In this document: positions 3,609 through 45,154 of the stretch, in pieces
Layout of the letters: each line of letters begins with the position of its first letter
Numbering within the stretch: position 1 is the first letter of the stretch
NCBI GenBank assembly: GCA_964016885.1
Contig: OZ024743.1
Coordinates: 270,444,001 to 270,508,000, forward strand
Source: Eledone cirrhosa
Taxonomy: Eukaryota
Length of the DNA stretch: 64,000 bases
Direction of reading: 5' to 3'
The notes under the pieces: generated by a model
What the model saw: only the letters and a program-made list of their open reading frames with translations
The model's database searches: none
What the model was told of the DNA's origin: nothing
Position numbers and translations under genes: made by a program

Positions 3609-3657
3609 GCTCCCTGATGATTTCTCCCGAATGAAACAGTTCTAGTCCTGTAGAAGC
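3609..3657 (+). ncRNA. Type I hammerhead ribozyme motif inside a palindrome (3559-3660)
   Basis: GCTCC CTGATGA T-TTC tccc GAA-T GAAA CAG ttctagtc CTG TA GAAGC; mirror copy on minus strand has a mutated core (CTGGTGA). Confidence 0.65.
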
Positions 3658-5026
3658 CATCTTTATATAATATATTAAATATTCATGCTCTGCTTTGTAT
3701 TGTGTACCTTGCTTCCTGTGGTTAGCATCGATTGAACCCGGGATAAACTCTCTCTCTCTCTCTCTCTCTCTCTCTCTCTCTCTCTCTCTCTCTCTCTCTC
3801 TCTCTCTCTCTCTATTATATATATATATATATATATAAGATAGATAGATATATACACACACACACGCACGAACATGCACGCACACACACACACACACACA
3901 CACACACACACTTATATATATATATATATATACATACATACATAAATGCATATATATATATATACAAATATGTGAGTGTGTGACGCTTTTGATTTTTTTA
4001 AATGTCGCATGTATCTGCTTCGTTTACTCAGCTAATACTCGTAAGGGACGGTATGAACATCACAACATTAACATTAATACAACTGGACATACTTTGATCT
4101 TGGTAGATATCTTACATATCAACATGTTAATCATTCACCTTGTATATTTCAACTAAAGCCTGAGAGAAACAAACATTTATCACATTTGTGTGTGTATGTC
4201 TGTGAAAGAGAGTGTGTGTGTATATAAATATATATATATATATGTGTGTGTGTGTGAAAGAGAGTGTGTGTGTATATATATATATATGTGTGTGTGTGTG
4301 TATATATATATATATATATATATATATATATATATATATATAAAAATAAATATATATATATATAAAAATAAATATATATATGTGTGTGTGTGTGTGTGTA
4401 TGTCATTATATGTGTGTGAGAGAGAGAATGAGCGATTAAGGGAATTCTATGTTTGATCAGGTAAAATACGCCGCAACATACACGCATTTACGCACATTCA
4501 TTACACACACGTCACACACATACACACACCGGCACACACACACACACACGCACAATTTCTCTCTCTTTCTCTCTTACACACACAGAGACTCTCATACACA
4601 TACACACACATTTATATACACACTCTCTCACACGCGTGTATGCTTCGCAGAGAAAAAATAAAAGGCATAAAGCTAATAATCCCTTTTTATCAGATTGCTA
4701 TCCATCTCCATAAAGATTGACAATATATATTTTTTTTTCATATTTTATCACATGTGTTATATATTTGATATTTATTATATTTCATCTTTTTTATCAAAGA
4801 AATATCAAACGGAGCAGCGTTCATGATAAAGAGGAGAAAGCGAGGGAAAAGTTTTAAAAAATGTTTTTAAAAAAATCAACAACAAAACATCAACATCAAC
4901 AACAACAAGAAGAAAATATCGACAACAGCAACAAAAGTAACGCAACAAGACTGAAACGAAAAAGCAAAATGCAACGAAACGCAACAACAACGAAACAAAA
5001 TTATTCTTCTCATCTGATTTCTAAAT

Positions 5027-5575
5027 TTAGCCATCAAATCTGAAGTCGATGGGAGTGCTTATACGTGGTTGCTTGATTGCAAGAAATAAACAGCAAAATC
5101 TGCTTAAATCTCCACTCATTACTGTCTTTAAATTAAAAATAAAAACAGCAACGATTTCCATCGAGCCCATCCAAATGACTTTCGATCCATAGTTGTCTGA
5201 AGCTTCAACCTGCTCCGTAGCTGTGGAGACTTCTGGTGTCTTTGGCCTTAGGGACATCTCCCTACTCACTACCATTGGCACAGAGTTTACTATCCCAGGT
5301 ATGAGCCTCGCAAGCTGGAATGGCTCTTCCAGCGCGTCTCCTTCACCATCCTCCGAGGAAACACCTTCTATATTCTGTCCACCGGGGCCGCGGGGTAACC
5401 AGTGTGTGGACCCCCATTTGCTCACAACAGTGAGAGATGGAGAGCGGGAGAGACGGAGACAGTGACAGTGGGAGTTTGGTCCCTTTGTGTTCGGATCTGG
5501 TGTATATGTATGTTTCACAGACTGAGGCATTTCTATTTGTCTTTCAAATAGGAAGTACGTATCTGAGGTCAACAT
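5027..5575 (-). CDS. Unrecognised 182-codon non-repetitive ORF, possible exon
   Basis: Only sizeable complex, GC-richer ORF not attributable to a TE or microsatellite; no domain recognised. Confidence 0.2.
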   Translation of the reverse strand: MLTSDTYFLFERQIEMPQSVKHTYTPDPNTKGPNSHCHCLRLSRSPSLTVVSKWGSTHWLPRGPGGQNIEGVSSEDGEGDALEEPFQLARLIPGIVNSVPMVVSREMSLRPKTPEVSTATEQVEASDNYGSKVIWMGSMEIVAVFIFNLKTVMSGDLSRFCCLFLAIKQPRISTPIDFRFDG

Positions 5576-5839
5576 GACAAACTATATAACACAACTTAGA
5601 ACTCTAGTTCAAAACATGTCCAGTCACTGCTGAGATGGTGTAATACTTTATTAATAATAAATATTTTAAAATAAGATTTCACTGAGATATACACTTACTT
5701 ATGCTTGGTTTTAAAACTTACCTGTCAACATCTGCCAAGCTCATGTTGGGTTGGTTTCCTCCCGTGGTTATCGACACCTAGATGGGATTGGAACGTAGAG
5801 AGACGAAACACATACTGACGGTCTCACAATTCCACTAAT

Positions 5840-5968
5840 CCCATACTTGACCGGTACTTGAAAGGATGAAAGGTAAAGCTGACCTAGACGAGATTTGAAC
5901 TCCGAACGCCGAGAGCCAGAACGAGTACCACAAAGCATTTTCTCTGACACTCTAGTAACTCTGCTAAT
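5840..5968 (-). mobile_element. Diverged family A-like SINE
   Basis: Reverse complement of B-box (GATTTGAACTC) and GGATGAAAGG...AAG body. Confidence 0.6.
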
Positions 5969-6529
5969 TTGACAGAAGGTTATATTACCTTAATTAGTAC
6001 TCGATTCACTGCGCCTTTAAAATATGCCTTGCACCATATCTGTTCAATCACAACTGATATGGGGCTAAACAACAACAACAACAACTACTACTACTACTAC
6101 TACTACTACTACTACTACTATCACCATCACCACCACCACCACCACCACCACCACCACCATCACCACCACCACCAACTACAACAATACTACTACTACGACA
6201 CAAGCAAACGTGGTCGCTCGATCTGCTAGAAAGATCAGTCAAACCCTACTGACTTATAAAATGGACACATTGACTAACATACACTGCAACACATTTTTCC
6301 TGAAAACCGAATAAACGGATGATGATGTCTGAAATGTCTTTCATCATAGGTCGGGTGCTTGATCATATCTGACCCGGAATTAAAAACAACCACAAATATT
6401 GGGGGTTCGGGAATGTCGGAAATAAAATATTAGGAGAGGAACTTGTGGGGGGAAGATTTTACTGAGAAGTAAAATACTGAAGAGATCACACGAGCAACAC
6501 GGAAGAAAGGTTAATATGTAATAATTATT

Positions 6530-6910
6530 TATACTTTAAGAACAAGGCCAGCGATTTTTGAGTAGGAAAAAGTCAATTAAATCGTCCCAAGAGCATTACT
6601 GGTACTTTATTTTATCGACCTTGTAAAGATGAAAAGCAAAGCTAACCTTCGCGGGATTAGAACTCAGGAGGTAGCCAACTCACCGCCCTCAGGTTAAAAT
6701 ATAATAATTGTTTCTACTTTTGGCACAAGGCCAGCAATTTATCAGTGCATTACTGGTACTTTATTTTATCGACCCCGTGAGGATGAAAGGCAAAGTCATT
6801 GTTTCTACATTTTGGCACAAAGCCAATTACCCCAGTGCATTACTGGTGCTTTATTTTATCGACCCCGTAAGGATGAAGGGCAAAGTTAACCTCGGCGGGA
6901 TTTGAACTCA
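6530..6910 (-). mobile_element. Cluster of partial family A SINEs
   Basis: Three 3'-half copies (CATTACTGGT.CTTTATTTTATCGACC) in tandem. Confidence 0.8.
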
Positions 6911-43400: not shown

Positions 43401-43782
43401 GTAAGGTAAACCCCCGGATAAACTGTAAAACTAGAAACGTGGTCTATAGCATAAGATGTACAGAGGGTACTTGCAGAAACATGACAACAACATACATAGG
43501 CGAGACAGCTCGTAGCATAGGTGAAAGGATAGACCAACACTGGGGGGGGGGGATTAAAAGGAAAAAAAAACGGTTCAGTACTATACGAACATGCCAGACA
43601 ACAACACGACGGTAACATAGACAACAGAAATTAGAATAATATCTAAACATAGAAATGACCCAACAGATAGGTATTTCAGAGAGGTCAGTGAAGTAGAACT
43701 TAGAAGGCCAAGGCTAAACAGAAAAAATGAATGGAATAACAACAACACCCAAACAAACAACATTGACCTAAGAGAAGTATAA
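40473..43782 (+). pseudogene. Disrupted PLE ORF: reverse transcriptase + GIY-YIG endonuclease
   Basis: LPPKFA, PTDKSG, LYGLRKD, TRPVCG, SMDVV*LYPSI, AIGVSIAG, YSRYVDD, CIIC...CKTRNVVYSIRC...YIGETARSIGER; stops, frameshifts, SINE insertion. Confidence 0.9.
41159..41346 (-). mobile_element. Young family A SINE inserted in the PLE ORF
   Basis: Perfect 19-bp TSD CTATGACGATAGATATAAT (41140-41158 / 41347-41365). Confidence 0.93.
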
Positions 43783-44040
43783 ATAAATAAATAAATAGAT
43801 AAATAAATAAATACATTCACAAGCACAATAACAACAAACATATATAAACACACACTAGTAAAGATAGAATACATTAACCAATACGCAGTCACCCAATCAC
43901 GAACACACATCAAACAAAACACTATACACACACGCAAACGCATGCGCAAAGAAGACAACAAATAAACAAATAAATAAATATATAAACAGACTAAATAAAG
44001 ATGGCGTAGAAAATACAATGCAACGGGAGGAAACAAGAGC

Positions 44041-44082
44041 ACCACTGACGATGCTGCAGATGTGCAACGAAAGAACTTTGAT
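44041..44082 (+). ncRNA. Hammerhead motif in PLE terminal repeat (partly decayed; mirror at ~39217-39258)
   Basis: ACCA CTGACGA T GCTGCA gatg TGCAAC GAAA GAAC TT TGAT. Confidence 0.65.
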
Positions 44083-44438
44083 AAACTATATATATGTGTT
44101 TGTGTCTATATTGTATCTGTATTTTTGACTGTTGGTCAGTCAATGGCAACATTGAGGACCGAATAAATTAAATTAACCGATATAAAAGACACAGAAGCGA
44201 AAAGCGAAAACCAACCAAACAGTGAGTGTGTTCTGTTATTAATTCTGGCAATATTACACAAATATGACCCTCCCCATATATATACACACACACACACACA
44301 CACACACACACACACATATATATATATATATATATATATATATATATATATATATATATATATATATATACATATATATATATATAGTAATAATAATAAA
44401 TTTGAAGACTAAAAACCATATATAAAATATATATGTGT

Positions 44439-44489
44439 AGTTTCAGAAGATCCCGTTAAGGGTGAAAGCACCGATTTTTTGCTTAAACT
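44439..44489 (+). ncRNA. Hammerhead motif with a core mutation
   Basis: AGTTT CAGAAGA T-CCC gttaa GGG-T GAAA GCA ccgattttt TGC TT AAACT; downstream tail homologous to 3685-3745. Confidence 0.6.
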
Positions 44490-45154
44490 TTAATCTGTTA
44501 TTTTATTATATATATATATTAAAATGTTATACTCTGCTATGTATTGAGTACCTTACTTACTGTGGTTACCTCCGATTCAACCCGGAATAACTTACCTTAT
44601 ATATATATATATGATCTTTAAAGCGATGAAATACCAATGAAGGCTGGAAGATCACTGATGAAAGACTAATTTTATTCATATGTAACCCATTTGCAATCAC
44701 GCAGCACGCCATTTTTTCATTTTATATATATATATATATATATATATATACATATATTCTCCGAAAATGTTTTTATTATATATACATATATATATATATA
44801 TATATATATATATATATATATATATATATATATATATATATATATATATATATATGTATATATAATAAAAACATTATTGGTATTTCATCGCTTTAAAGAT
44901 CATATACCTCTGGTTGGTGCGAGCAACGGCTGAAGAAAGCCGTTGGGACACGTAAAATAGGGTGAAACGAGCGAGACATGTAAACAAACAAAGATGTTAA
45001 TGCAACATACTTGGGGAAGGTCATGTTGCCCAAAGTATAACAATATCTGTTTCAACACACGTTTTCAGATAAGAAATCTCGCAAAACAAATTAAAAAATG
45101 AATTATATATATATTCATACACAACCAGTCAATCTACCTATCAACCATATGAGC

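Follow-up and report, generated by a model that had tools for sequence, protein, structure and literature searches.

A duplicated hairpin motif at the insertion ends of Hydra-type Penelope-like elements in Eledone cirrhosa and beyond

A 64,000-nt stretch of the Eledone cirrhosa genome (assembly GCA_964016885.1, contig OZ024743.1, positions 270,444,001-270,508,000 of the forward strand; hereafter the window) contains short repeated segments in which a small hairpin-forming motif is followed by a microsatellite. Their sequence identifies these segments as 3' ends of Hydra-type Penelope-like elements (PLEs). A preliminary description of the window had already linked such stems to PLE termini, which agrees with this assignment; the module that it outlined is the known PLE “tail”, an extension found at one end of an insertion only (PMC8557442). 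Beyond that description, the motif is doubled, with a second copy lying past the microsatellite junction and visible in full-length tandem units only. Nearly all insertions end a few bases 5' of one copy or the other, and an inverted insertion combines a short with a long end; the one-sided tail is therefore the interval between the two motifs. The twin hairpins are probably protein-binding RNA anchors, each of which would position a start of reverse transcription 3-8 nt upstream.

All ten stems listed in the preliminary description were found at their coordinates and on their strands. The consistency of their layout has been assessed outside the window, in 20 held-out blocks of 50 kb (1 Mb) from nine contigs of this 3.0-Gb, microsatellite-rich genome, with the pattern YACTC-N6-45-GAGTRC and a microsatellite sought 30-80 nt downstream. 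A microsatellite was present downstream in 59 of the 95 matches and upstream in 6; eleven permuted-stem controls gave a downstream microsatellite in 20 of 434 matches and the reversed order in 1 of 9, so that the enrichment over permuted stems holds in independent sequence. The segments had been thought mostly unrelated to one another. Instead, 70 stem copies (60 held-out and 10 from the window) group into 15 clusters, of which three have 23, 15 and 15 members, and the segments are thus repeats of several families, designated here F0, F1 and so on; the window stems at 3686 and 44530 represent one family, and those at 10156 and 22247 co-cluster. Four of five reported pairings of a stem with an upstream hammerhead ribozyme stand, with intact cores at 3614, 10284(-), 29280 and 38571(-). 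The fifth was mistaken, since the hammerhead at 44439, with its decayed core CAGAAGA, belongs to an F15 insertion that stops in (TA)n near 44505, and the stem at 44530 to an adjoining F2 insertion. The stem at 27977 is also preceded by a hammerhead 3' half (GAAAC at 27930).

The stem as originally drawn is present but was too small. The full motif reads RCUC-Y(loop)R-UH-GAGY-RC-UNU, the YACTC..GAGTRC stem being one variant, and consists of a 4-bp base (RCUC/GAGY), a 2-nt bulge in the 3' arm beginning with U, an upper stem of one to several base pairs, a variable loop (the half-sites being ~7 to >40 nt apart), and the unpaired RC-UNU. It has no catalytic core of its own and lies 46-78 nt downstream of the hammerhead GAAA. 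So refined, the motif adds three copies in the window, at 8829(+), 28405(-) and 50145(-); a relaxed match at 27708, inside another repeat, has been rejected as chance. The degenerate stems described earlier are a decayed F2 copy (3686) and a decayed copy with intact relatives elsewhere (22520), and the GCTC/GAGC version at 8691 is motif 1 of F14. In full-length units the hammerhead is followed by motif 1, then, after 57-98 nt, by motif 2 and finally by the ATG. Terminal copies lack motif 2 because insertion stops just before it; a complete motif 2 lies past the long end in F0, F1, F4 and F15, and the second site of F14 is a TCTC/GAGA variant. No tandem-junction copy was found among 30 loci of F3 and 25 of F12.

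The ends of insertions have been mapped on natural leader references of six families, using microsatellite-abutting ends from the held-out blocks and the window. Of 118 ends, 111 stop within the 0-15 nt that precede motif site 1 (61 ends) or site 2 (50 ends), the usual distance being 3-5 nt when the ends are taken at their maximal extent. These zones contain only 53 of the 265 sites capable of overlap with the target (TAT, ATA or TTA); a looser count over four families places 104 of 107 ends near a motif site. Most ends show 1-5 nt of TA overlap with the target. Inverted partners were found for 57 of the 70 copies, and 49 of them end between -14 and +2 of the stem, a few on weak AT-rich matches. 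Among 50 diverging pairs, 45 combine a long with a short end, none is long with long or short with short, and five have one unclassified end. Measured from site to site, the tail is 71-98 nt long here.

Conservation of the motif extends beyond this genome. A scan of marine metagenome contigs gave 76 loci (the best of 216 confirmed), of which 44 span the start of the open reading frame (ORF) and 38 have a leader of at least 150 nt. With a search pattern that demanded neither the bulge nor the upper stem, the motif occurs in 30 of these 38 leaders (twice in 18, once in 12) and at least once in 26 of 33 clusters separated at <80% amino-acid identity; antisense and ORF-internal controls each gave 0 of 38, and shuffled sequences a mean of 0.09 against 48 observed. 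Motif 1 and motif 2 are spaced by 57-83 nt, another 34-69 nt separate the start of motif 2 from that of the ORF, and 27 of 29 copies of motif 1 have a hammerhead core upstream. Insertions end 0-8 nt before a motif, in one case a degenerate one, at 10 of 11 informative loci.

Read by eye, the published consensuses (PMC8557442, File S7) show the motif in three of six Hydra elements and a near match in another. One exact motif stands at the end of Hydra-2_Amil from a coral and of Hydra-2_Ajap from a sea cucumber, Hydra-1_Ajap starts with two motifs ~61 nt apart, and Hydra-1_Crog from a copepod has near matches at both ends; none was seen in Hydra-1_Amil and Hydra-1_Obim. A count of three diagnostic 8-mers in that file gave 15 occurrences, four in Hydra motifs and 11 in Naiad or Chlamys sequences that have no GCTC arm, line breaks possibly hiding further matches. 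Motif 2 of one metagenome locus (L168:437-463) and motif 1 of F4 (L128:7572-7598) have a common 23-nt core including a 9-nt loop, despite proteins that are only ~36% identical. Rfam searches of 16 metagenome loci with E up to 5 gave only two weak small nucleolar RNA matches, both inside ORFs, a blank that is only moderately informative because Rfam also missed the hammerheads in those loci.

The carriers have been characterized from full-length tandem units of F0, F1, F2 and F4 (periods 3531 and 3896; units of 3.5-3.9 kb). Each encodes a single open frame of 749-821 codons with a reverse transcriptase (RT) YRDD motif and a C-terminal nuclease of the form (V/L/I)IY/IVY..Y(I/F/V)G; PF01541 was found in one homologue. 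All four carry the Hydra-clade signatures DKT (in place of DKG), the linker CxCx5C and CxxC..E..N..CxH; among 118 database homologues, DKT occurs in 102 and CxCx5C in 111, and a third sequence feature of the clade is found in all four host proteins and in 114 homologues. At the N-terminal RWK position the host proteins have RWR (three) or RWT (one), and the homologues RWK (83/118) or RWR (29/118). As to the CCHH finger, which the endonuclease lacks in the Hydra clade, inspection by eye shows one cysteine in the GIY-YIG core of F0, F1 and F4 and two in that of F2. Of the microsatellite-abutting ends, 115 of 118 are in (TA)n, and the hallmarks of PLEs (partial tandems, inverted 5'-truncated partners and the one-sided tail) are all present. 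Hammerhead cores are predicted in the terminal repeats of F1, F2, F3, F4, F12 and F15; in F0 the 3' half is clear and an intact CUGANGA was not found. These proteins match the Hydra clade, with RWK only approximated, and the likeness to the published elements covers the single ORF with RT and C-terminal GIY-YIG, the three signatures named above, the terminal-repeat hammerhead, the (TA)n target, partial tandems and inverted 5'-truncated partners (PMC8557442). The units are longer than the <3 kb “generally” given in that source, and RWR or RWT replaces RWK.

Assignment of the motif carriers to the Neptune or Nematis clades has been rejected, since they have CxCx5C and DKT rather than CX2-5CxxC and DKG. 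The long element of the window (41368-44217), with DKSG, YVDD and a CxxC linker and no motif, is Neptune-like; the idea that the stems are parts of it has been discarded, the family having no motif and the neighbouring stems being nested insertions. This abundant Neptune-like PLE (window 38965-40505(-) and 41368-44217(+)) has two discrete ends 45 nt apart, after which no common motif was seen. Tails of the Hydra-type families occur at ~81 per Mb in the held-out sample, which is drawn from large contigs only and would correspond to on the order of 200,000 copies genome-wide if that density holds. Many F0 and F2 insertions (e.g. 27860-27930 and 3561-3615) measure only 150-200 nt, their truncation and inversion falling inside the hammerhead or immediately ahead of it, and form near-perfect palindromes between two microsatellites.

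Evidence that the motif acts as RNA comes from covariation, counted with an arm-anchored script because MAFFT with RNAalifold, applied to 41 motif copies, misaligned the 5' arms and returned no structure; the permutation statistics ignore kinship among copies. In 68 distinct metagenome copies the bulge is always UU, UC or UA. The first upper pair is Watson-Crick in 67 (45 C-G and 22 U-A), against a permutation mean of 37.9 and a maximum of 53. For the second pair the count is 49 of 68 against a mean of 19.3, and for the third 34 of 44 against 12.5; the fourth pair is not significant. On a quick protein tree of host and metagenome rows, two of them possibly mis-assigned, the first pair of motif 1 switches eight times, and at least three switches are forced by well-supported branches. 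Local pairing holds in 27 of 27 cases and cross-register pairing between motifs in 13 of 27, and U-N-U follows the motif in all 28 copies of motif 2. A weak hairpin that a protein reads through both sequence and shape fits these data. The preliminary proposal of a second conserved cis-acting RNA element is thus upheld, in that the motif is conserved, covaries across divergent families and lies a few bases 3' of the insertion ends.

A mechanism for Hydra-type elements can be proposed by analogy with Poseidon from Anolis, whose protein nicks and extends both DNA strands and in which two internal reverse transcription starts, near a stem-loop, bound the tail (PMC11167929). Nicking of a (TA)n tract on both strands by the endonuclease would leave free 3' ends, each of which would pair with the A/U-rich stretch immediately upstream of a hairpin and be extended toward the 5' end of the RNA, and the two complementary DNAs (cDNAs) would be joined head to head into an inverted insertion with a short and a long arm. 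The strand begun at motif 2 would carry motif 1 as the one-sided tail, and the strand begun at motif 1 would have none. Both sites would be engaged in one complex, because independent choice should give short-short and long-long pairs about half the time.

Several observations weigh against this anchor reading. The base stem hardly varies among the metagenome copies (65 G-C and 3 A-C mismatches of 68), an invariance equally to be expected of a DNA site; its closing pair varies in the host genome only (59 A-U, 18 G-C and 4 G-U of 81). The excess of sense-strand G-U over A-C is small (9 versus 2), and the naked RNA folds only marginally, with z between +0.3 and -2.9 for 10 sequences, several of which pair the two motifs with each other. 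At the second site, F2 has only GCAC-YCTCT-GTGC, a plain 4-bp hairpin (GCAC/GTGC), though it is abundant with precise long ends, and F16 only a degenerate form; eight of the 38 metagenome leaders have no strict motif, and locus L151, the sole exception among the 11 informative loci, ends within the hammerhead. How one RNA templates both strands over their shared upstream stretch is left unexplained by the anchor model. Finally, the Neptune-like family forms short+long pairs in 6 of 6 cases, with a 45-nt tail and without the motif, so the motif is not required for this architecture in PLEs generally; the architecture is general and the twin-motif signal appears clade-specific.

Among the alternatives, the motif may be read as DNA, either as a duplex or as a cDNA hairpin, by the GIY-YIG endonuclease, which would cut a few bases to its side in resolving a longer transposition intermediate and leave the tail as a resolution product. 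The tail has indeed been ascribed to endonuclease-mediated resolution by Craig et al. (PMC8557442), the D. virilis endonuclease needs tail sequence for recognition according to earlier work cited in PMC11167929, and the near-invariant lower stem and marginal folding also agree with such a site. A spacer varying from ~7 to >40 nt and covarying first pairs are nevertheless ill-suited to a duplex, without exception the bulge occupies the 3' arm of the sense strand, and in Poseidon the genomic ends coincide with measured reverse transcription starts (PMC11167929). A DNA site is on the whole unlikely; a single-stranded DNA hairpin may still be what is read. Still less probable is RNA cutting 5' of each stem, by a host nuclease or an element protein, in which the hairpins would yield two RNA 3' ends for ordinary end-primed target-primed reverse transcription. 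Discrete ends a few bases from a small conserved hairpin and conservation that reaches into the unpaired flanks would suit such processing; with separate RNA species, however, nothing would oblige every insertion to combine a short with a long end, as all 45 classified pairs do, and Poseidon RT starts internally on unprocessed RNA (PMC11167929).

A role of the motifs as promoter or translation signals, with A/T overlap with (TA)n as the sole determinant of the ends, is very improbable. Motif 2 does lie 34-69 nt before the ORF start, the 34-bp repeat region of D. virilis Penelope carries a transcription-control sequence (PMC2377424), and short TA overlaps are found at most ends; yet the overlap-capable sites are concentrated near a motif far less than the ends are (53/265 against 111/118), and the non-coding F14 and F16 keep motif 1. 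Chance with amplification of a few related repeats can be dismissed, already refuted as it is for presence and position: three families do give 53 of the 70 clustered copies, and kinship inflates pair counts, but the motif recurs in 26 of 33 metagenome clusters with zero in the controls and in published consensuses from two other phyla.

The anchor reading thus remains the preferred one, and it has a bolder extension that falls just short of being probable. The twin hairpins may constitute a duplicated RNA aptamer common to the whole clade in several animal phyla and serving as a molecular ruler, on which two RT-endonuclease protomers bound to one RNA would prime both nicked (TA)n strands; the spacing would set tail length, and a leader of ~120 nt would be enough to mobilise a passenger RNA, a possibility suggested by the non-coding F14 and F16. 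In other systems, too, the RT protein recognises a small RNA structure that fixes the start of reverse transcription, among them the template-flanking elements of telomerase RNA, the 3' untranslated region of R2 and the bulged epsilon stem of hepatitis B. Compared with these, the Hydra anchor is doubled, lies 3' of the start and is not the priming template, and no homology is claimed.

The elements, their hammerheads, (TA)n targeting, the tail and twin starts are already known. The closest parallel is the Poseidon element PAc, which has two starts downstream of a hammerhead at the junction of terminal repeat and ORF with the tail between them, nicks and extends both DNA strands and has an AT-rich target (PMC11167929). 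Its sites are, in contrast, inside the ORF at one AC-rich stem-loop, its tail is 30-40 bp, and the available part of that source describes no duplicated conserved motif; in the Hydra-type elements the 5' leader contains both sites, at a distance of 57-98 nt, and a copy of the motif, itself conserved between phyla, follows each. In the available text of PMC8557442 the annotation is confined to the hammerhead plus 20 nt of flank; a downstream motif is not marked, nor is any relation to the ends. The hammerheads upstream of the motif are of the minimal kind known from PLE pseudo-long terminal repeats (PMC4209133), and the motif is separate from them. Neither the duplicated motif nor its relation to the insertion ends was found described in the open literature searched or in Rfam; subscription journals, Repbase and Dfam lay outside the search. 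The motif is real and conserved, and apparently undescribed, within a known class of elements.

Two non-coding units carry it as well and are probably passengers mobilised by Hydra-type elements. F14 (660 bp, locus L302, window 8691) has motif 1, a type I hammerhead and the variant motif 2; F16 (586 bp, locus L285, window 28405) has motif 1, and no hammerhead core was seen in it. Being short, non-coding, dispersed and in tandem, both resemble non-LTR (long terminal repeat) retrozymes (PMC7229834; 10.64898/2026.07.22.740005), from which they differ in their size of 590-660 bp and in the Hydra-type motif; the available parts of these two sources name no mobilisation signal for retrozymes.

The features of the window are collected in Table 1. 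In addition, a repeat resembling a short interspersed element, with units of 90-105 nt, occurs at 2827-3136, 6707-6886 and 41155-41350, one copy lying within the 5' ORF region of the Neptune-like element, and two broken non-LTR retrotransposon ORFs are located at 14496-17626(+) and 51920-54542(+) (RT with a zinc finger and RT with a PHD finger). Pfam matched two of ten proteins from PLE fragments of the window, both matches being unrelated non-LTR RTs, and left eight without a match; among the best 150 of 174 Rfam matches to the window, only microsatellite-driven matches of microRNA type were found.

Table 1. Motif copies and PLE-related features in the window (positions of the 64,000-nt stretch)
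Feature	Position	Strand	Details
F2 Hydra-type PLE end	3561..3747	+	Inverted short-end half, hammerhead (core 3614-3620, GAAAC 3633), tail into (CT)n
Motif 1, decayed F2 copy	3687..3707	+	Other copies have ACTC..TT-GAGT-AC
Motif 1 of F14, GCTC/GAGC form	8691..8728	+	Non-coding 660-bp unit; inverted partner stops directly before stem
Additional motif copy	8829..8850	+	42 nt ahead of (AC)n; family without traced ORF
F4-like Hydra-type element	9030..9298	+	C-terminal endonuclease fragment, 80% identity over 89 aa
Motif 1 of F1	10156..10177	-	60 nt to (TA)n
F1 minimal type I hammerhead	10225..10292	-	Core 10284, GAAA 10246; recognised from sequence
Motif copy ending GAGT-TC	19806..19827	+	Old low-copy family (2 other copies found); no upstream hammerhead, no traced ORF
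Motif 1, F1-related family	22248..22275	+	63 nt to (TA)n
Decayed motif copy, old family	22523..22548	+	Motif matched in 7 of 11 other fetched copies
F0 insertion	27860..28051	+	Inverted short end, hammerhead 3' half (GAAAC 27930), motif 1, long end into (TA)n
Motif 1 of F0	27978..28003	+	
F16 motif, canonical GCTC..TT-GAGC-AC	28378..28405	-	Non-coding 586-bp unit
F12 hammerhead core	29280..29358	+	Weak stem I
Motif 1 of F12	29421..29472	+	Long loop; inverted Hydra-type ORF beside one fetched copy
Motif 1 of F3	38423..38464	-	Other copies have a Hydra-type endonuclease upstream
F3 minimal type I hammerhead	38527..38577	-	Core 38571
Broken Neptune-like PLE	41368..44217	+	Own hammerhead core 44045, no motif; negative control
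F15 insertion	44386..44505	+	Inverted long end, decayed hammerhead 44444, short end; separate from the stem at 44531
Motif 1, F2 tail fragment	44531..44551	+	46 nt to (TA)n
F15-like motif copy	50098..50145	-	

These results bear on two questions, namely how a PLE protein recognises its own RNA and why the insertion tail is one-sided. The sole in vitro study of a PLE has narrowed RNA binding to ~150 nt of one Poseidon element (PMC11167929). In this genome, in marine metagenomes and in coral and sea cucumber consensuses, a doubled motif of ~20 nt predicts both insertion ends within a few bases, which makes the question of RNA recognition directly testable. It also provides a rule for the true boundaries of Hydra consensus sequences and for spotting non-coding passengers. 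If the molecular-ruler reading is true, the motif would be, as far as the search reached, the first conserved RNA recognition element for the telomerase-related reverse transcriptases of PLEs.

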